A stretch of 53,345 nucleotides of DNA from Escherichia coli (GTDB taxonomy: Bacteria > Pseudomonadota > Gammaproteobacteria > Enterobacterales > Enterobacteriaceae): the NCBI RefSeq assembly GCF_003334405.1, contig NZ_QOWM01000021.1. One strand, 5' to 3'. Position 1 is the stretch's first letter, and every line of letters starts with the position of its first letter. This document shows, in pieces, positions 21,524-29,678 of this stretch. Both the position numbers and the translations under genes were made by a program. Below the pieces are notes generated by a model that was given only the letters and a program-made list of their open reading frames with translations, made no database searches and was not told where the DNA came from.

Positions 21524-22789
21524 ATGCTCACGAAAAAGAAATGGGCGTTATTTAGTCTATTAACACTGTGTGGCGGTACAATTTATAAATTACCGTCGCT
21601 GAAAGATGCGTTTTATATCCCGATGCAGGAATATTTCCATTTGACCAATGGTCAAATTGGTAATGCTATGTCGGTAAACTCATTTGTCACCACAGTGGGC
21701 TTTTTTCTGTCTATTTATTTTGCCGATAAACTACCGCGCAGATACACCATGTCATTCTCACTCATTGCGACAGGATTACTGGGTGTTTATTTGACGACAA
21801 TGCCGGGGTATTGGGGCATCCTCTTTGTCTGGGCGCTATTTGGCGTTACTTGCGACATGATGAACTGGCCGGTCTTGCTCAAGTCGGTAAGTCGATTGGG
21901 CAATAGCGAACAACAAGGTCGGTTGTTTGGCTTCTTCGAAACAGGGCGTGGCATTGTCGATACCGTGGTGGCATTTTCTGCGTTGGCAGTATTTACCTGG
22001 TTTGGCAGTGGCTTATTAGGTTTTAAAGCAGGCATCTGGTTCTATTCCCTTATTGTGATTGCCGTAGGCATTATTATTTTCTTTGTCCTGAATGACAAAG
22101 AAGAGGCACCGTCCGTTGAGGTGAAAAAAGAAGACGGAGCATCGAAAAACACCAGTATGACCTCGGTGCTGAAAGACAAAACTATCTGGCTTATCGCTTT
22201 TAACGTCTTCTTCGTTTACGCGGTTTACTGTGGCCTGACATTCTTCATTCCATTCCTGAAAAACATCTATCTATTGCCCGTTGCGCTGGTGGGGGCTTAC
22301 GGCATCATTAACCAATACTGTCTGAAAATGATTGGTGGACCGATTGGTGGCATGATTTCAGATAAGATCCTGAAATCGCCAAGTAAATATCTATGCTACA
22401 CCTTTATCATTAGTACCGCTGCGCTCGTACTGTTGATTATGCTGCCGCACGAAAGTATGCCGGTCTATTTAGGGATGGCATGTACGCTGGGCTTTGGCGC
22501 GATAGTCTTTACACAGCGAGCCGTATTTTTTGCACCTATCGGCGAAGCAAAAATTGCTGAAAATAAAACAGGTGCGGCGATGGCGTTGGGTAGCTTTATT
22601 GGTTACGCTCCGGCGATGTTCTGCTTCAGTCTGTATGGCTACATTCTGGATTTAAATCCGGGGATTATTGGCTACAAAATCGTGTTTGGCATTATGGCCT
22701 GCTTCGCATTCAGTGGTGCGGTGGTTTCCGTAATGCTGGTTAAGCGTATTAGCCAACGTAAGAAAGAGATGCTGGCGGCTGAAGCTTAA
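21524..22789 (+). CDS. yihN: MFS-type transporter YihN
   Basis: 421-aa ORF, highly hydrophobic with multiple predicted TM segments. Confidence 0.85.
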   Translation: MLTKKKWALFSLLTLCGGTIYKLPSLKDAFYIPMQEYFHLTNGQIGNAMSVNSFVTTVGFFLSIYFADKLPRRYTMSFSLIATGLLGVYLTTMPGYWGILFVWALFGVTCDMMNWPVLLKSVSRLGNSEQQGRLFGFFETGRGIVDTVVAFSALAVFTWFGSGLLGFKAGIWFYSLIVIAVGIIIFFVLNDKEEAPSVEVKKEDGASKNTSMTSVLKDKTIWLIAFNVFFVYAVYCGLTFFIPFLKNIYLLPVALVGAYGIINQYCLKMIGGPIGGMISDKILKSPSKYLCYTFIISTAALVLLIMLPHESMPVYLGMACTLGFGAIVFTQRAVFFAPIGEAKIAENKTGAAMALGSFIGYAPAMFCFSLYGYILDLNPGIIGYKIVFGIMACFAFSGAVVSVMLVKRISQRKKEMLAAEA

Positions 22790-22794
22790 TTAAT

Positions 22795-22872
<78 letters not shown>

Positions 22873-22879
22873 TTTCACA

Positions 22880-23572
22880 TCAGAAGAAATACTTCGTCCC
22901 GATACGGATCTGGTTTTGCTCGCGGTGGTACGGTTCGACGTTGCGGTCTAACCAGCGCAATTCGAAATAAGGGAGCCAGTGTTCATTAATACGGTAACGG
23001 AAGGTGTTAGTGATTTCCCAATGATGATCTTTCCCGTTGCTACTATTAAAGTCATTCACTCGCATGAAGTAATGTGGCTCAAATGTATAGGAAAATTTAT
23101 CGGTGATTTTAAAATTCCAGTAGGTGCCAATTTCATAGGTGTCATTATTATCCAGTTCCCCGCTCAAATCTGTTGAACTATAGTTATTATGGTTATAGCG
23201 ATTTCGTACTGTCAGATTAAACCATGGTACAAATTTATAGTTGACGTCCAGATACACTGCACCACCCGAACCGATACTCTTATCATTAATTAAGCCACCG
23301 GGCTGGATGGTTAATTTATCGGTTGGTTTAAATAACGGATACCAGCCTTCAATTTCGTTATATCCATGTTTTAGTTCATCTTCTCGCTGAAAGTTGTAGG
23401 TATTGGTTAACATAATACCCGCGCCCATATCGAAGTTATAACCCACACGTAGCATAACCTCGCCCTGATCGGAGGCAAGATTATATGCCTCCCTGTTTTC
23501 GACGTATGCGCCAGCAAATACCGAGGCAGAGGTCAGAGAAGATAATAAAATTATTGCATTAATCTTTTTCAT
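22880..23572 (-). CDS. ompL: Outer membrane porin OmpL
   Basis: ORF-track frame trimmed to ATG 23572 (MKKINAIILLSSLTSASVFA signal peptide), 230 aa; beta-barrel-like alternation and C-terminal ...IRIGTKYFF. Confidence 0.85.
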   Translation of the reverse strand: MKKINAIILLSSLTSASVFAGAYVENREAYNLASDQGEVMLRVGYNFDMGAGIMLTNTYNFQREDELKHGYNEIEGWYPLFKPTDKLTIQPGGLINDKSIGSGGAVYLDVNYKFVPWFNLTVRNRYNHNNYSSTDLSGELDNNDTYEIGTYWNFKITDKFSYTFEPHYFMRVNDFNSSNGKDHHWEITNTFRYRINEHWLPYFELRWLDRNVEPYHREQNQIRIGTKYFF

Positions 23573-23639
23573 AATAAGTCCATTTTTTAAACGTAGGGAG
23601 GCCGCCACCCACCAGGATGGAAATAGCGGCTATTGACAT

Positions 23640-25043
23640 TTATAACGTTACGGAAGCCGTTTTTTCTTCTGTCGCCATCTCTTTATTTTTGCGTTGGTTG
23701 ATTTCCTCAATAATCAATGCAAACCGTTTTTCATTGAGTGTGTAAAAGAATCCCATCGTCAATGCAGCAATAATTGCCAGTGCACAAGGCCAGATAAAAA
23801 TGAGCTGACGCAAACCCTGTAATGTCGCATCGCTTTGCGCGATGTTGGGAACATAACCAATTTGCGTCAGCATAATGCCTGGCAAGAAGCCAGCAAGTGC
23901 GGCAGAAATTTTACGAAAGAAGGTATAACCGGTATAAACAGAACCTTCGGCACGAATACCGGTTTTCCATTCACCGTAATCTACGGTATCTGGTACCAGT
24001 GCCCAGTTCAGGCTGTTTACAAAGGCCGTGCCAAAAAAGGCGACACAAGAGAACATGACGAAAGTGAAAGAGTTACTTCCCCAGAAATAATTCAGTATAT
24101 CACCCACCGCCCACAGCACCATGCCAGCCAGATAAACCTGTTTTTTACCAAAACATTTTACAGTTAATGGCACCAGTAATACGCCGATGAGGATGCATCC
24201 CATACTGAAGAATCCCATCCACGACAATAAATTAATATCATTCAGCACATACTGGGTGTAATAGACCTGAATCGCCAGTTTGATATTAAATGCCGCCAGG
24301 GTACACAAGTTAGCAATGCATAAAACCAGCAATGGCGGATTCCGAAATATCGCGCAAAATGATTTGAGAATACTGGCTTTATGTCCGGTTGGCGTTGTGT
24401 CCACATAATGCTCTTTGACGCCTCTGTAGCACAGCATCATAAAAATAAAGCCGCCAATGGAGAACATAAGTGCCGCACAGGCATAACCGACGGTTGAGTC
24501 AGAAAAAAGCGACTGCAACGGAATAAACGCCACGGTACAAATCAATAGCCCTATGGTTGCACCACCCTGGCGGTAAGCCGCGAGCTGCGCGCGCTCATTC
24601 GGGTTTTTGGTAATTGCCGGGATCATCGCACCATACGAGCAGTTCATCAGACTGTATGAAAGTCCAAACATCATAAACAGCGCGGTGGCAATCGTCGTTT
24701 TAACCGGCAAACAAAAGGTGGTGGCGATAAACTGGAGCGTTGCAATTAACGCCGCCGGAACCGCTGCATATAAAATAAAGGGACGAAATTTGCCTTTAGG
24801 CCCAATATTTTTCCGCGAGTCGAGTAAAAATCCGGTGAGCATATCGGTAAACGCGGTAAAAAACTTCGCCACCAGAAAGATAATCCCGCCATAGTAAGCA
24901 GGCATCCCTAATTCATCGGTATAAAATTTGAGGAGATACAGAGTACCGATGCAGAGCATTAAATTCGAACCGACGTCGCCCATACCATAGGCGATTTTTT
25001 CCCGCAGATTCAGTTTTAATGTCAGTGGATTATGGTCAGACAT
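23640..25043 (-). CDS. yihO: GPH-family transporter YihO (putative sulfoquinovose / sulfoquinovosyl-glycerol importer)
   Basis: Hydrophobic ORF with GDVGSNLMLCIGTLYLLKFYTDELG; start taken at MSDHNPL (25043), track start is 25049; paralogous to the adjacent yihP. Confidence 0.85.
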   Translation of the reverse strand: MSDHNPLTLKLNLREKIAYGMGDVGSNLMLCIGTLYLLKFYTDELGMPAYYGGIIFLVAKFFTAFTDMLTGFLLDSRKNIGPKGKFRPFILYAAVPAALIATLQFIATTFCLPVKTTIATALFMMFGLSYSLMNCSYGAMIPAITKNPNERAQLAAYRQGGATIGLLICTVAFIPLQSLFSDSTVGYACAALMFSIGGFIFMMLCYRGVKEHYVDTTPTGHKASILKSFCAIFRNPPLLVLCIANLCTLAAFNIKLAIQVYYTQYVLNDINLLSWMGFFSMGCILIGVLLVPLTVKCFGKKQVYLAGMVLWAVGDILNYFWGSNSFTFVMFSCVAFFGTAFVNSLNWALVPDTVDYGEWKTGIRAEGSVYTGYTFFRKISAALAGFLPGIMLTQIGYVPNIAQSDATLQGLRQLIFIWPCALAIIAALTMGFFYTLNEKRFALIIEEINQRKNKEMATEEKTASVTL

Positions 25044-25085
25044 AATCACTCCTTATAACGCCCCGCAGGGCGTCGTTTATTATTA

Positions 25086-26471
25086 TTACGCCGTGCGTTT
25101 ACGGGCTTCTATCTCTTCCACAATGCGGACATACATCTTCTCGTTCAGGCTGTAGAAGCAACCCATCGCCACAATGGTGACTACCGCCAGTGCGCTTGGG
25201 TAGATGAAGATCAACTGGCGTAACCCTTCAATGGTGTGGTCAGCCTGTGCGACGTTCGGCACATAGCCAATTTGCGTCAGCATCCAGCCGGGGAAGAAAC
25301 CAGCCAGCGCCTGAGACACTTTGCGAAAGAAGGTAAAACCGGTGTAGACCGTTCCTTCCGAACGCACGCCGGTGCGCCACTCGCCGTACTCGACGGTGTC
25401 GGAAACCAGCGCCCAGTTCAGGCTGTTAACAAACGCTGAGCCAAAGAACGCCAGGCAGGAGAACGCCACGAAGCTGACCGAACCGCCGCCGAAGAAATAG
25501 TTGAGCAGATCGCCCAGCACCCAAATCAGCAGGCCGCCGATATAAACTTTCTTCTTGCCAAAACGTCTGACTGAGGCAGGCATCAGGAATACGCCGATGA
25601 AAATACAGCCCATGCTGAAAAATCCCATATACGACAACAGGATGGGATCGTTAAGCACGTACTGGGTGTAATAGACCTGGATGGCGAGCTTGACGTTAAA
25701 CGCCCCTAAAGTGCAGAGGTTGGCAATGCACAGAATGAACAGCGGGCGGTTACCCGCAATTGCGCGGAAAGATTGCAGCAGGCCCGGCTTTTGCGCCGGA
25801 TTAGCAGGCTGGGTTTCGACATAACGCTCTTTCACGCCCGAGTAGCAGATCCACATAAACAGCAGGCCAAACAGTGAAAACAGCGTGGCGGCGAAGATAT
25901 AGCCAAGTTGCTGATTACCTTCGATAAGATTCATAACTGGCACGAATCCCACCGTGCACAGCAGCAGGCCCAGCGTAGCGCCGCCCTGACGCCATGCCGC
26001 CAGTGAGGCGCGTTCGTTGGGGTTTTTGGTGATAGCGGGAACCATTGCGCCGTAGGAGCAGTTCATCATGCTGAAAAACAGTCCGTAAAGCATAAACAGA
26101 ATAGTGGCCATCACCGTTTTACCGGTGACATCAAACGGTGTGCCGACAAAGTTGGCGATCGCCAGTAAGGTGACCGGGAATGACGCATACAGAATAAAAG
26201 GACGGAACTTACCTTTTGGACCGATCTTGCGTCGGGAATCCAACATAATGCCGGTACCCATATCGGTAAACGCAGTAAAGAATTTTGAAATCAAAAAGAT
26301 AATGCCGCCATAGGTGCCTGGCAGCCCCAGAACGTCGGTATAAAACTTCAAAAGATAAAGCGTACCGATATCCAGCAGGATGTTAGAGGCCAGGTCGCCA
26401 ATACCGTAAGAGAGTTTCTCTTTAAAGGGCAGGCGTAAAGTTGCTGGATCTTCCGTTGTGATGTGACTCAT
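25086..26471 (-). CDS. yihP: GPH-family transporter YihP
   Basis: ORF-track frame trimmed to ATG 26471 (MSHITTEDPATLRLPFKEKLSYG...), which has SD GGAGA upstream; GDLASNILLDIGTLYLLKFYTDVLG paralogous to YihO. Confidence 0.85.
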   Translation of the reverse strand: MSHITTEDPATLRLPFKEKLSYGIGDLASNILLDIGTLYLLKFYTDVLGLPGTYGGIIFLISKFFTAFTDMGTGIMLDSRRKIGPKGKFRPFILYASFPVTLLAIANFVGTPFDVTGKTVMATILFMLYGLFFSMMNCSYGAMVPAITKNPNERASLAAWRQGGATLGLLLCTVGFVPVMNLIEGNQQLGYIFAATLFSLFGLLFMWICYSGVKERYVETQPANPAQKPGLLQSFRAIAGNRPLFILCIANLCTLGAFNVKLAIQVYYTQYVLNDPILLSYMGFFSMGCIFIGVFLMPASVRRFGKKKVYIGGLLIWVLGDLLNYFFGGGSVSFVAFSCLAFFGSAFVNSLNWALVSDTVEYGEWRTGVRSEGTVYTGFTFFRKVSQALAGFFPGWMLTQIGYVPNVAQADHTIEGLRQLIFIYPSALAVVTIVAMGCFYSLNEKMYVRIVEEIEARKRTA

Positions 26472-26516
26472 CGATGTTCTCCCTTTGCCCATGAGTTTCC
26501 CCACGGGCGGATGTGA

Positions 26517-28553
26517 TTAGATGCTTTTTAACGACGCGAACAGTGCCGCCCATTCGCTATCGGCGCGATAAAAGACCGGCGGCTTGCCGATGGGCGCATT
26601 AACGGTAACTTCCCCGCCCCGGAACGCTTCACCCGTCCAGGCGTGGACCCAGTTATCCTCCGGCAGATAGAGCGTCCAGTCGCTACGGCCTTCTTCATGC
26701 ACCGGAGCGACCAGAATGTCGCGACCTAACAGATACTGATATTTCAGGGTGTAAGTGTGCGCATCGTCTTCGTAATGCAGGAACAGCGGGCGCATAACCG
26801 GCAGGCCGGACTTCGCATTCAGCGCGACGGCCTCTTTCAGGTAAGGTTTCAGGGTGGTGAAGACGGTGGTCATACGGGCGAAATGGGCGATGGTTTCTGC
26901 GTCGCCGTCAAACTGCCAGTTGTCGCCAGGACGGTTACCTTCGTGGGTGCGCATCATCGGCGTGAAGGCGCTGAAATCGCACCAGCGCAGCAGCAGCTCT
27001 TTGCTGCGCTTCATCTCAAACAGGGTGGTGTAACCGCCAATGTCGCTGTGGTGCAGGCCATGTCCGGTCATTGCCAGCGACAGCGCCGCCGGGACAACCG
27101 ACGCCAGGCCATCGTCGAGACTCCAGTCGACGTTCTGGTCGCCCGCCCACATCATGGTGGAGTATTTCTGGCTACCGGTAGAACCGGCGCGCATAAAGAA
27201 AAGGATCTCGCCGAGCTTGCCCGTTTCTTCAAGGGCTTCGTAGTTACACTTCGCCCACAGCGCAGGCCAGGCGTTATGCATAATTTCGGCACTGACGCCG
27301 TTATGCAGGTACGTGTCGGTGGGCAGATACTCGCCGAAGTCAGCCATCCAGCCGCCGCAGCCGAGTTCAATCATGTTCTTTTTGATCACTTCCTTGAACC
27401 AGGCGTAGGCTTCTGGATTAGTGAGATCGACAACGCCGCCGTAAAACTCGCCAAACTCCACCAGATAGTCACCGCCAGAGGCATCTTTTGCCAGATAGCC
27501 GTGTTGTGCCGCTTCTTCGCAGAGATCTTTATCGCTGGCAACATACGGGTTGATATAGGCCAGGAACTGCACGCCCTCCTGATTCCACTGCTTAATGCGT
27601 GAATCCAGTTGCGGGTAGTTTTCGCTGTTCCACTTCCAGTTCCACATCACGCGTTTGCCAAAAGAGGTCATACGAATACCGGACCAGTCCTGCGCCCAGA
27701 TGCCGTTGACCTTCACGCCCGCGTTACGCATGGTGTCCAGTTTCTTCTGGCACACTTCCGTCCCGCCCTGAATGCCGAGCGTTACTCCGTCATAAATCCA
27801 GTCGGGCAGTTCTGGCTGGCGTCCCAGCAGGGCGGTTAATTTTTCCAGCAGGGAAATGTATGTGTCAGCACATTCAAAACGCAGCGTTGCTTTGTCTTCC
27901 CACAGCGCCAGTTCATGGTATTCCGGGGCACTAAAGTCGAAGTTCATATAGCAACTGTTATCAACATGGCAGTAATACTTCTGCGTGCTGACAAACGTAG
28001 GCTGTGGGAAGAAAGTCCAGTAATAGTCGCCGCCCGCATTTTCTTTGCAGTCGGCCTGCCAGGTGACATAGGTTTGTTTGTTGCGACCAACGCCTTGTTC
28101 ACTGGTCCATAGCGGGAACGGTTTGCCACGCAGATCGAAGTAGGAAAACTGTTCGCCGCAGCCGTAGATATGGTCCTCTGGTTGAGCGGCAAGGCGCAGC
28201 CAGATACGGTTGTGGTTAAGGTTGTCGTTTTGTAGTTCCAGCAATAAACGCCCCTGATCGTCGGCAGAGATATTCAGCGTGGCGCTAATGTCAGAACCAC
28301 GGCTGAAATGAATTAACCAACCATCCGGTGACTGGCTGACGATGGCGTCGGTAAGCGCAATTTTCTCCTGTAGTTTATCTTTAATGCTGAAATTACCGCG
28401 GAACATATCGATATCCGCTATACCTGAGCCAATCCATAAACAAGGATTATCTTTGCTATGGGTTAAAATAAGACGTTGTTGAAAATGTAGGGTAAAACTG
28501 TCGTTATTCTGATGAAATTGAAAATCTAATAACTGTGGACGTGGCGTATCCAT
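26517..28553 (-). CDS. yihQ: Sulfoquinovosidase (GH31 family) YihQ
   Basis: 678-aa ORF; GH31-type motifs around GIWAQDWSG and WMADFGEY. Confidence 0.9.
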   Translation of the reverse strand: MDTPRPQLLDFQFHQNNDSFTLHFQQRLILTHSKDNPCLWIGSGIADIDMFRGNFSIKDKLQEKIALTDAIVSQSPDGWLIHFSRGSDISATLNISADDQGRLLLELQNDNLNHNRIWLRLAAQPEDHIYGCGEQFSYFDLRGKPFPLWTSEQGVGRNKQTYVTWQADCKENAGGDYYWTFFPQPTFVSTQKYYCHVDNSCYMNFDFSAPEYHELALWEDKATLRFECADTYISLLEKLTALLGRQPELPDWIYDGVTLGIQGGTEVCQKKLDTMRNAGVKVNGIWAQDWSGIRMTSFGKRVMWNWKWNSENYPQLDSRIKQWNQEGVQFLAYINPYVASDKDLCEEAAQHGYLAKDASGGDYLVEFGEFYGGVVDLTNPEAYAWFKEVIKKNMIELGCGGWMADFGEYLPTDTYLHNGVSAEIMHNAWPALWAKCNYEALEETGKLGEILFFMRAGSTGSQKYSTMMWAGDQNVDWSLDDGLASVVPAALSLAMTGHGLHHSDIGGYTTLFEMKRSKELLLRWCDFSAFTPMMRTHEGNRPGDNWQFDGDAETIAHFARMTTVFTTLKPYLKEAVALNAKSGLPVMRPLFLHYEDDAHTYTLKYQYLLGRDILVAPVHEEGRSDWTLYLPEDNWVHAWTGEAFRGGEVTVNAPIGKPPVFYRADSEWAALFASLKSI

Positions 28554-28751
28554 AACTAATCTCCATAGAGTTGAGAACGAGATTGTTGCCTTCCTGTTAT
28601 TACAGGCTTATGTAAAATGATTCTCATAAAACTGATATATAAAAACTTTACAGAAGCTGAGCTGTTTTTAACTTAATAAATTGAAGATACATAATGTTGC
28701 CTTTAGCGAGTGAAATGTTCTTCAATGATTTTGACTGCTAATCAATACAAG

Positions 28752-29678
28752 TTATTTTCTCTGTCCGTAAATATTAAAAAACAGGCGGTGCGGTTTTCCT
28801 GATTCCAGTAATAATAAGTCGATACCTGAATTAAAGGCGTTAGGCGGGCAACTCATAGGTTCAACTGCCAGTCCCTGACGCTGTAATTTTTCACCGCTAT
28901 AAACCTGCACCCAGAGTTGATCGGAACAAAGGCTTACCGAAAGCGCCTGCTGTGGATGGGTAATGGTCATTTCCCACAAATCATTAGCGGTTTTAAAGGT
29001 GTGGTCGATTTTTGTCGCGGCTATTTTTTTCGCCTGCGTGAAATTTAAATCCAGCTCATCAACGTGGTGAAGCGTTGTCGGATTCGCGTGCTCATCGACG
29101 GCATAAACCTGGTTTGCCGGAAGCTGGAACAGATATTCATCAACAGATGTTAAGTTGCAGGTTAAATAAGGATGAATACCCACGCCATAAGGCGCTGCGA
29201 CAGTGCCGATATTCTGGCTTGCGATCTCAACGGAAAGACCCGTGTGTGCGTTGAGCGAATAAACAACTTGTGAAGCCAGCATAAACGGATAGCCGTAACT
29301 GGGCGGCAGAAAAGCTGTCAGGGTAACGCTGGTGGCGGTTAATTCACTAATTTGCCAGTCTCGCCAGGCAAGCAGCCCGTGAATAGCGGCTTTTGAACTA
29401 TGTTCATTAATGGGTAACTGATATTCCTGCCCCTGATAGCGGTAACAGCCGTTGGCGATCCGGTTCGGCCACGGAATAAGCACTTTACCCAGATGCGCCA
29501 GCGGCATCTCTTCGGGTTTGTGCGGGATGACTAAATGACAACCCTGAAAGGTTAATTCAGCCAGACCAGCACCGACGGTCACAATGGTCGCGTGATAATC
29601 CCCCGCGGCAAGTGAAACGGTCTGTCCACTGCAATGCATATTGGTGATTTGCATACAAGGCACCTTAATTAACGACAT
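28752..29678 (-). CDS. yihR: Aldose-1-epimerase family protein YihR (sulfoquinovose mutarotase)
   Basis: 308-aa ORF in the expected position between yihQ and yihS; family assignment from memory of the K-12 annotation. Confidence 0.85.
   Translation of the reverse strand: MSLIKVPCMQITNMHCSGQTVSLAAGDYHATIVTVGAGLAELTFQGCHLVIPHKPEEMPLAHLGKVLIPWPNRIANGCYRYQGQEYQLPINEHSSKAAIHGLLAWRDWQISELTATSVTLTAFLPPSYGYPFMLASQVVYSLNAHTGLSVEIASQNIGTVAAPYGVGIHPYLTCNLTSVDEYLFQLPANQVYAVDEHANPTTLHHVDELDLNFTQAKKIAATKIDHTFKTANDLWEMTITHPQQALSVSLCSDQLWVQVYSGEKLQRQGLAVEPMSCPPNAFNSGIDLLLLESGKPHRLFFNIYGQRK

Follow-up and report, generated by a model that had tools for sequence, protein, structure and literature searches.

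Base composition and evolution of the tandem permease genes yihO and yihP in the sulfoquinovose cassette of Escherichia coli

The adjacent genes yihO and yihP of Escherichia coli encode two GPH-family permeases that are similar in protein sequence and visibly different in base composition. Does such a contrast betray separate origins of the two genes? The question arose from a first-pass annotation of a 53,345-nucleotide stretch of E. coli DNA (the window), which had taken the contrast as an argument against a recent in situ duplication and had proposed either independent acquisition or long divergence. The studied stretch matches E. coli K-12 MG1655 at 100% identity. Gene names and limits given here are those of the RefSeq annotation of the identical MG1655 stretch; the spacer and hairpin were read from the sequence and the AT-richer block was delimited by composition. 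The features discussed below are:

19508 to 25043, no strand assigned: AT-richer block containing yihL, yihM, yihN, ompL and yihO (GC 0.445)
22880 to 23572, minus strand: ompL, porin gene, last of the yihP-yihO-ompL run
23640 to 25043, minus strand: yihO, GPH-family permease of 467 amino acids, the AT-richer paralogue
24588 to 24644, minus strand: codons of the MNCSYGAM-PAITKNPNERA motif in yihO, approximate crossover zone of P::O hybrids
25044 to 25085, minus strand: yihP-yihO spacer, 42 nt
25058 to 25073, minus strand: GC-rich hairpin (6 bp) inside the spacer
25086 to 26471, minus strand: yihP, GPH-family permease of 461 amino acids, the GC-richer paralogue
26007 to 26063, minus strand: the same motif in yihP, partner site of the hybrid crossover
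26517 to 28553, minus strand: yihQ, sulfoquinovosidase gene, upstream of yihP

In the spacer, the hairpin is followed by an AAGGAG ribosome-binding site. By annotation, both permease genes belong to the sulfo-EMP (yih) sulfoquinovose cassette, and a like neighbourhood was found in 72 related loci. No mobility genes are annotated near yihO in the K-12 neighbourhood.

Base composition of the pair in K-12

The contrast noticed by eye was borne out by the numbers. GC content is 45.0% in yihO and 52.4% in yihP, with values of 0.451 and 0.511 at first codon positions, 0.402 and 0.407 at second positions, and 0.498 and 0.654 at third positions (GC3). The two GC3 values, whose similarity would have spoken against the observation, differ markedly (two-proportion test, z = 4.8, p = 1.5e-6). 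The two DNA strings quoted as illustrations each occur once, at 25089-25109 in yihP and 23641-23666 in yihO. In order to control for protein sequence, GC3 was compared at 285 aligned degenerate codons specifying an identical amino acid. It was 0.453 in yihO and 0.635 in yihP, with 83 versus 31 discordant sites (McNemar exact p = 1.2e-6). At four-fold sites, GC was 0.605 versus 0.706. The yihP excess is mainly due to third-position C (0.364, as compared to 0.237 in yihO). The AT shift of yihO also extends to first codon positions and to amino-acid content. Most of the GC3 contrast lies past codon ~150, and it is weak in the first 150 codons.

The step between the two genes was located by maximum likelihood. 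When 19600-28300 was scanned, a range leaving out the AT-rich yihQ-yihR spacer, the best single change point fell at 25059, within the 42-nt spacer, with GC 0.445 on the left and 0.542 on the right (2*dlnL = 76). A scan of 22000-29000 returned position 28359, in the yihQ-yihR spacer itself. The block running from yihL to yihO, about 5.5 kb, has a GC of 0.445, as compared to 0.524 for the stretch from yihP to fabY. With a GC3 of 0.641, yihQ stands on the GC-rich side of the step, like yihP. In K-12, ompL has the lowest GC3 of the cassette (0.459), and in other species it averages -0.148 relative to the core enzymes. Neither yihO nor yihP is a compositional outlier singly: relative to the 34 genes of the window (mean GC3 0.553, sd 0.074), yihO lies 0.7 sd below and yihP 1.4 sd above.

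Age of the duplication and co-inheritance

YihO and YihP share 65% identity and 81% positives over 456 residues (BLASTP), and the four long peptide stretches reported as common are indeed present in both. Identity at third codon positions is only 41%, these positions being saturated. Orthologues are 72-93% identical, versus 65% between the paralogues. Within a genome, the O-P distance averages 0.434 (minimum 0.359), whereas between-species distances are 0.211 inside the O clade and 0.157 inside the P clade; the within-genome distance was the larger in 63/63 species. A recent tandem duplicate would show unsaturated synonymous divergence and paralogues closer than orthologues; yihO and yihP show neither. 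Recent gene conversion in K-12 was also rejected, as the longest identical run between the two genes is 20 nt and no 50-codon window has raised identity.

Trees were built by neighbour-joining on corrected p-distances, not by maximum likelihood. YihO and YihP formed separate clades, each spanning the sampled Enterobacterales, and 200/200 bootstraps joined the two to the exclusion of every other GPH protein. The P clade was recovered in 198/200. Support for the O clade was modest (65% without distant outgroups, 32% with them), the O copy of Anaerobiospirillum falling outside. One sequence from Symbiopectobacterium endolongispinus, chimeric or single-copy and 73% identical to both proteins, was left out of the tree; with it, O and P monophyly seemed broken. 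Among 1.84 billion representatives, the next full-length relatives of the pair are 51%, then at most 39% identical.

Gene order points the same way. The arrangement yihQ-yihP-yihO-ompL is kept in 63 of the 72 loci, across about 30 genera, and yihO is always accompanied by yihP and ompL. Overall, the two genes are tandem paralogues of ancient origin that enteric bacteria have inherited as a pair. The argument against a recent in situ duplication thus holds. Of the two origins first proposed, long divergence stands, whereas independent acquisition of the paralogues is contradicted by the conserved tandem order, by the joint monophyly and by the host-tracking GC3 described below; the phylogeny identifies sister lineages and not recent duplicates. 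Both genes would stem from a single duplication in a small subfamily of GPH proteins specific to the sulfoquinovose cassette, and would then have been inherited and transferred together as yihQ-yihP-yihO-ompL.

Selective constraint, proposed recombination and rival explanations

Of the two genes, yihP has the higher GC3 in 60/63 species (mean gap 0.051, Wilcoxon p = 8e-12) and in 29/30 genera (sign test p = 6e-8), figures to be read knowing that species share ancestry and are not phylogenetically independent. The gap keeps its sign in hosts of very different GC, for instance in the 34% GC Anaerobiospirillum. Escherichia is its extreme, at 0.16-0.18 (z ~4), and divergent E. coli alleles as well as E. 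whittamii show the same contrast. GC3 of both genes follows that of the host cassette, with slopes of 1.10 for yihO (r = 0.89) and 1.04 for yihP (r = 0.93). A slope of about 1 is unlike a recent foreign gene.

The gene-specific part of the contrast goes along with constraint. Over the 10 genes of the cassette, the GC3 offset rises with the degree to which the protein is conserved (Spearman 0.85, p = 0.0016). In 20/20 close species pairs, dN/dS was higher for yihO than for yihP (median 0.048 versus 0.019) at similar dS, meaning that yihO is under purifying selection about 2.5-fold weaker. Faster evolution and lower GC3 are found together in yihO, ompL, yihR and yihV in almost every genus, and GC3 of yihP stays at the level of the cassette core enzymes. 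The link from weaker constraint to lower GC3 is correlative; AT-biased mutation may be countered less effectively in the less constrained yihO.

A second layer, of about +0.10, would be specific to Escherichia. In 200/200 bootstraps, the YihO of Escherichia falls together with UBA5654 and Citrobacter wls619; for YihP, a group of these four taxa was recovered in 0/200. Gene by gene, yihP and, weakly, yihQ are closest to cassettes of the Enterobacter/Citrobacter/Kosakonia type, which have a GC3-rich yihP. The yihO, yihR and yihS genes come nearest to the cassette type of UBA5654/Citrobacter wls619/Superficieibacter, in which yihO is AT-richer. The K-12 GC3 values are bracketed by those of these two donor-like groups. 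Such discordant affinities suggest an old homologous replacement within the Escherichia cassette. Homologous recombination has likely replaced one gene block by another allele in the distant past, a nuance in favour of the initial reading. The junction would lie near the yihP/yihO boundary; the affinity of yihO switches about 80 codons inside the gene, not exactly at the spacer. A more doubtful possibility is that the sharp compositional step in the spacer is itself the junction of an ancient recombination between genera, in a cassette recombining at paralogous motifs. Since dS between Escherichia and other genera is about 1 or more, donor composition would be partly erased, and the proposed replacement carries neither date nor direction. 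Recent inter-genus transfer was rejected, dS being at least 0.95 for every gene and species outside Escherichia.

Could expression-linked codon selection account for the contrast instead? The yihP gene would be translated more, for example because the spacer hairpin lowers expression of the downstream yihO, and would carry more optimal codons ending in C or G. The hairpin is indeed present, the excess of yihP is mainly third-position C, and the frequency of optimal codons is 0.588 in yihP versus 0.502 in yihO, with 3.6% versus 5.2% rare codons; these codon figures, based on the optimal codons of Ikemura and Sharp-Li, are indicative only. However, both genes fall far below the highly expressed genes of the window, glnA (0.78) and typA (0.81), and sulfoquinovose induces yihO and yihP jointly (log2FC at least 5; PMC12608037). 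The gap also has the same sign in hosts of very different GC and codon preference. We therefore regard this explanation as unlikely.

Separate horizontal acquisition of yihO and ompL, perhaps with yihLMN, from a lower-GC donor into Escherichia, without amelioration since, appears more improbable still. It would accommodate the 5.5-kb AT-richer block with its change point in the spacer, the AT shift at first positions and in amino-acid content, the variability of the typA-ompL interval among E. coli strains and the long branch of Escherichia YihO (mean distance 0.26, as compared to ~0.16 for Citrobacter and Enterobacter). Against it stand the same P-O tandem in about 30 genera, the sister relationship of the two lineages, the tracking of host cassette GC3 by yihO and the small deviation of its GC3 from the window mean. 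Moreover, yihO has no close nucleotide relative outside Escherichia (dS at least 1.37), and the differences in yihLMN from one E. coli strain to another are independent of ompL-yihO. The affinity that yihR and yihS share with yihO makes yihP, not yihO, the phylogenetic odd one out. Indeed, in composition, host tracking, distribution and mobility genes, yihO lacks the marks of a recently acquired foreign (genomic-island) gene. Finally, the idea that two compositionally ordinary genes, each within 1.4 sd of the window GC3 distribution, differ by chance is refuted by the paired test, by the sign repeated across genera and by the change point coinciding with the spacer.

The explanation that we consider probable is that of ancient co-inherited paralogues whose contrast reflects unequal constraint together with the Escherichia mosaic. 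Neither layer specifically predicts the weak contrast in the first 150 codons. The GC contrast would follow from unequal selective constraint and old recombination as an ordinary by-product and would not point to a new system; these are known genes with ordinary compositional heterogeneity. The significance is modest: when neighbouring paralogues differ visibly in GC, this is no evidence, taken alone, that they were acquired separately by horizontal transfer. In the present case the contrast occurs alongside strict co-inheritance and tracks unequal purifying selection and old intra-cassette recombination.

Strain variation, function and comparison with known systems

Among 5426 complete E. coli genomes, yihO was found in 3891 and yihP in 3892, which fits a cassette absent or truncated in many strains. 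Long and short yih cassettes have been described in E. coli, with frequent recombination inferred (Kaznadzey et al. 2025, PMC12608037). Within the species, divergence is very uneven (dS 0.24 in yihP versus 0.07 in yihO), and yihP of K-12 and of O157 have diverged to the same degree as E. whittamii, which leaves no usable outgroup for polarising GC-to-AT against AT-to-GC changes within Escherichia.

Rare natural P::O hybrid genes also occur, for example in GCA_029211745.1; the TauE-bearing cassettes that carry them have no other GPH transporter. In 45-nt mismatch windows, the hybrid resembles yihP up to alignment nt 405-450 and yihO from there on, and a chimera pattern is also seen in the protein. 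The hybrid junction is absent from the 5,426 complete E. coli genomes, where the best full-length matches are only 85% identical. At two loci (L048, L071), a TauE gene takes the place of yihP, which fits an exporter role for YihP and is no proof of it.

In the literature, on genetic and contextual evidence, YihO is treated as the sulfoquinovose (SQ) importer, growth on SQ being absent in a delta-yihO mutant, while YihP is "most likely" a DHPS exporter, a putative assignment (PMC6278857, PMC12890257). The possibly different specificities first suggested for the two permeases match the distinct roles already proposed, as putative, in the literature (PMC6278857). Only 9 differences between YihO and YihP are fixed by clade, all conservative and with no charge change. 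A possible but rather doubtful alternative would make YihP a second importer with another sulfosugar specificity or affinity (e.g. SQ versus SQ-glycerol), ancestral export by TauE/SafE having been lost in K-12; it would fit the nine conservative differences, the two Tyr/Phe exchanges at the pocket described below and the hybrids acting as sole GPH transporter. The slow evolution of YihP, the nine fixed differences, the hybrids and the TauE-bearing long cassette may serve as leads on the division of labour between YihO and YihP. In the literature on the yih cassette, we found no report of the O/P rate asymmetry, of P::O hybrids or of the TauE-bearing long form. Base composition of the pair is not discussed in the literature searched, and "GC content" occurs 0 times in PMC12608037.

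Both proteins belong to the family TIGR00792, with scores of 529 bits for YihO and 537 bits for YihP (cut-off 231.35), and precomputed Pfam matches on close homologues are PF13347 and PF07690. YihO matches over its full length the melibiose permease MelB, the GPH/MFS_2 prototype (PDB 4M64, 7L16/7L17); with phmmer, residues 11-439 align to 3-438 of chain 4m64_A (E = 8.3e-40). In the alignment, MelB Asp59, Thr373 and Lys377 are kept as Asp67, Thr374 and Lys378. In contrast, Lys18/Asp19, Asp55, Asn58, Asp124 and Trp128 are replaced by Ser26/Asn27, Thr63, Thr66, Asn134 and Gly138, and YihP has the same residues as YihO at those sugar and cation positions. The MelB Na+ cation triad Asp55/Asn58/Asp59 thus corresponds to Thr63/Thr66/Asp67, with only the Asp59 equivalent kept, within an FTAFTDM motif common to YihO and YihP, so that the full triad of a Na+-coupled MelB-type symporter is not present. 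The acidic sugar ligands of MelB being neutral in both, the pocket would suit an anionic sulfonate substrate. With the sugar-pocket positions of PMC8329300, 2 of the 9 fixed differences fall in the pocket: Tyr130/Phe133 on MelB Tyr120 and Tyr373/Phe379 on Gln372. One of them adjoins the C6 substituent, the site of the SQ sulfonate.

As for the cassette, the present pair consists of the very genes known from the sulfo-EMP cluster of E. coli, ompL-yihOPQRSTUV-csqR, and is no different from them (PMC6278857, PMC8006165 and PMC12608037, all citing Denger et al. 2014). K-12 carries the long form of the cassette as in PMC12608037. Beyond that description, the long cassette of O157:H7, WP4 and E. whittamii includes a TauE/SafE gene, placed between yihQ and yihR, that K-12 lacks.

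Composition of the yihO-yihP pair

The features under study are the following:
23640-26471, minus strand: studied interval, whose ends coincide with the yihO stop codon and the yihP start codon
23640-25043, minus strand: yihO, encoding YihO (467 residues)
25086-26471, minus strand: yihP, encoding YihP (461 residues)

In the RefSeq annotation, ompL, yihO, yihP and yihQ lie on the minus strand within the sulfoquinovose (SQ) cluster ompL-yihOPQRSTUV-csqR. E. coli K-12 MG1655 and many further K-12 derivatives carry the 4-kb region around the pair with 100% identity. YihO and YihP score 529 and 537 bits with the GPH model TIGR00792 (curated cut-off 231), and both give full-length matches to MelB structures. 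Between the two proteins, identity is 65% and similarity 81% across 456 residues. All four long peptides that the first-pass annotation had quoted as common to both permeases are indeed present in each, and its two DNA strings were found, with one occurrence each.

That annotation had also noticed a different base composition of the two genes, and computed GC3 bears this out (z = 4.8 for the difference).

Base composition of the two permease genes in K-12
yihO: GC 0.450; GC1 0.451; GC2 0.402; GC3 0.498
yihP: GC 0.524; GC1 0.511; GC2 0.407; GC3 0.654

The effect of protein sequence was removed by using only the 285 aligned degenerate codons at which yihO and yihP encode an identical amino acid. 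At these codons, GC3 was 0.453 in yihO as compared to 0.635 in yihP, with G/C ending in yihP only at 83 sites and in yihO only at 31 (McNemar p = 1.2e-6). The third-position excess of yihP is mainly C. The contrast is weak in the first 150 codons and strong beyond. A single-change-point likelihood scan of 19600-28300 placed the GC step at 25059, in the 42-nt yihO-yihP spacer, with a GC value of 0.445 on its left side and 0.542 on its right. To the AT-richer side belongs a 5.5-kb block of yihL, yihM, yihN and ompL, with yihO at its end. Among the 34 genes of the window (mean GC3 0.553, sd 0.074), neither yihO nor yihP alone is an outlier. Overall, the composition contrast is correct and statistically solid. 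A GC-rich hairpin with a perfect 6-bp stem and a loop of 4 nt (ACGCCC-TGCG-GGGCGT, coding strand) also lies in the spacer, at 25058-25073, directly before the yihO ribosome-binding site. The hairpin is terminator-like only on the antisense strand and could modulate the relative expression of yihO and yihP.

GC3 is higher in yihP than in yihO in 29 of 30 genera and, at the species level, in 60 of 63, the mean difference between species being 0.051 (sd 0.040). Each gene tracks the GC3 of its host's cassette (slopes close to 1; r = 0.89 for yihO and 0.93 for yihP), and both are therefore host-adjusted, without a foreign signature. Each gene keeps across species a characteristic mean GC3 offset from the core enzymes: -0.148 for ompL, -0.091 for yihV, -0.080 for yihR, -0.060 for csqR, -0.042 for yihO and +0.009 for yihP. 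Over 10 cassette genes, this offset correlates with protein conservation (Spearman 0.85). In all 20 closely related species pairs, yihO had the higher dN/dS (median 0.048, as compared to 0.019 for yihP), with similar dS. Thus, both genes are clearly functional, with a roughly 2.5-fold weaker constraint on yihO. AT-biased mutation pressure would be opposed less effectively in the faster-evolving yihO, and the AT-shifted first positions and amino-acid content of this gene fit such a bias. The phenomenon is ordinary compositional heterogeneity in a recombining catabolic cassette, and the genes are well known.

Age and origin of the pair

The first-pass annotation had argued against a recent in situ duplication, and had proposed long divergence or independent acquisition. 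At third codon positions, yihO and yihP are saturated (41% identity), and they share no identical run longer than 20 nt. Protein searches showed orthologues in many Enterobacterales with identities of 72-89% for YihO and 85-93% for YihP, all above the 65% between the paralogues. Scanning a single genome for each species yielded 72 loci. About 30 genera are represented, among them Escherichia, Yersinia, Serratia, Pantoea and Budvicia, together with an Anaerobiospirillum MAG of 34% GC. In 63 of the 72, both permease genes stand in the same order, yihQ-yihP-yihO-ompL. In neighbour-joining trees the YihO (O) and YihP (P) clades are apart. With distant outgroups, bootstraps supported O+P monophyly (200/200) and the P clade (198/200). 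Monophyly of the O clade is less firm (32-65%), owing to the basal position of the Anaerobiospirillum copy. The next full-length relatives among 1.84 billion representative proteins are 51% identical, then at most 39%. Within a genome, the O-P distance averages 0.434 (minimum 0.359), and in every species it exceeds the between-species distance inside the O clade (0.211) and inside the P clade (0.157).

Recent sister duplicates are therefore not what the phylogeny contains, and the proposed long divergence holds. Independent acquisition of the two genes is rejected on account of their shared subfamily origin and the co-travelling tandem. From the conserved order, the trees and the distances, it follows that the pair is the product of a single old duplication in a small cassette-specific subfamily and has since moved as a unit. 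In GC-rich Chimaeribacter spp. (three loci, L064, L067 and L068), the gene after the yihP orthologue is no yihO orthologue and encodes a much more distant GPH protein, sharing 46-48% identity with YihO as well as with YihP.

Allelic histories in Escherichia

Escherichia shows the largest GC3 contrast of all genera (0.156 in K-12, 0.185 in E. whittamii; z ~4), and divergent E. coli alleles, e.g. O157:H7 and WP4, show it too. The second largest is that of Salmonella (0.14), where the yihO value is based on a partial gene, since the longest ORF in S. enterica subsp. diarizonae (L005) lacks roughly the first 150-190 residues of the alignment. This short ORF is suggestive of frameshift, truncation or misassembly.

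Escherichia YihO lies on a long branch, with a mean distance to others of 0.26 as compared to ~0.16 for Citrobacter and Enterobacter. In 200/200 bootstraps it grouped with Citrobacter sp. wls619 and UBA5654, an uncultured member of the Enterobacteriaceae. For YihP, a grouping of these four taxa occurred in 0/200, Escherichia YihP being nearest to Enterobacter and Kosakonia. In a per-gene scan, K-12 yihS, yihR and, from about residue 80, yihO were closer to the UBA5654/wls619/Superficieibacter type, whereas yihP and slightly yihQ were closer to the Citrobacter/Enterobacter/Kosakonia type. GC3 is 0.40-0.58 for yihO of the former group and 0.61-0.82 for yihP of the latter, bracketing the K-12 values. 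On account of these discordant affinities and bracketing values, we think that an old homologous replacement inside the cassette adds to the Escherichia contrast. With dS to every other genus at ~1 or more, such a replacement must be old. The two Escherichia genes seem to have differing allelic histories.

Of 5426 complete E. coli genomes, 3891 have yihO and 3892 have yihP, in agreement with the reported long and short cassette forms (PMC12608037). Between K-12 and O157:H7, nucleotide identity is about 99-99.8% in flanking genes, 89.3% in ompL, 98.1% in yihO, 94.7% in yihP, 96.0% in yihQ and 94.6% in yihR. The corresponding dS is 0.07 for yihO and 0.24 for yihP, the latter being on a par with the distance to E. 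whittamii. Divergence is thus very uneven, so recombination breakpoints flank yihO inside the species too. Against the O157:H7 (L074) and WP4-S18-ESBL-09 (L075) loci, it is unusually deep in ompL (22950-23250, one stretch having 28-34 mismatches per 150 nt between K-12 and O157:H7) and in yihP-yihQ (25086-28553). The typA-ompL interval (19724-22789 in the window) is strain-variable. It holds yihL, yihM and yihN in K-12 and O157:H7, a six-gene cluster in WP4 (L075 4081-9615) annotated as a Cof-type HAD hydrolase and STM4011-4015-family proteins, two of them radical SAM, and no genes in a strain bearing a hybrid permease gene (L076 10173-10277).

Hybrid genes and transporter function

Of the results on yihO/yihP, the most useful are the side observations. 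In rare E. coli and E. albertii proteins (P0003-P0014, P0017, P0018), the first ~150 residues are identical to YihP and the remainder to YihO. In E. coli GCA_029211745.1, the hybrid (L076 8001-9413) is the sole GPH gene of a cassette ordered yihQ, hybrid, ompL, typA, with a TauE gene present. The switch (about nt 405-450) falls within the MNCSYGAM-PAITKNPNERA motif, encoded in the window at 24588-24644 (yihO) and 26007-26063 (yihP). Unequal crossing-over between the tandem paralogues at this motif would produce such a structure. The hybrid gene is absent from all 5,426 complete E. coli genomes. Similar O/P intermediates occur in S. bongori (P0086) and Symbiopectobacterium endolongispinus (L046).

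A TauE/SafE family permease gene (291 residues) is carried by 17 of the 72 loci. It also occurs, between yihQ and yihR, in O157:H7 (L074 15576-16451), WP4-S18-ESBL-09 (L075 15579-16454) and E. whittamii. K-12 is without it, having there a 198-nt spacer (28554-28751, GC ~0.33). Two loci (L048, L071) lack yihP and have TauE immediately upstream of yihO.

In the literature, YihO is the assigned SQ importer, the delta-yihO strain showing no growth on SQ, and YihP is putatively, 'most likely', the exporter of DHPS; these reports contain no transport assay (PMC6278857, PMC8006165, PMC8873060, PMC12890257). Among 455 columns of the O/P alignment, 217 have the same conserved residue in both clades, and only 9 show clade-fixed differences, all conservative and none charge-changing. 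By phmmer alignment, Tyr130 of YihO and Phe133 of YihP correspond to MelB Tyr120, and Tyr373 and Phe379 to MelB Gln372, both being pocket positions in MelB. The sulfonate of SQ is borne by C6. In MelB, Gln372 is no more than 5 A away from the C6-OH of the sugar (PMC8329300). The two Tyr/Phe differences at these aligned MelB positions may thus be taken as a lead to specificity.
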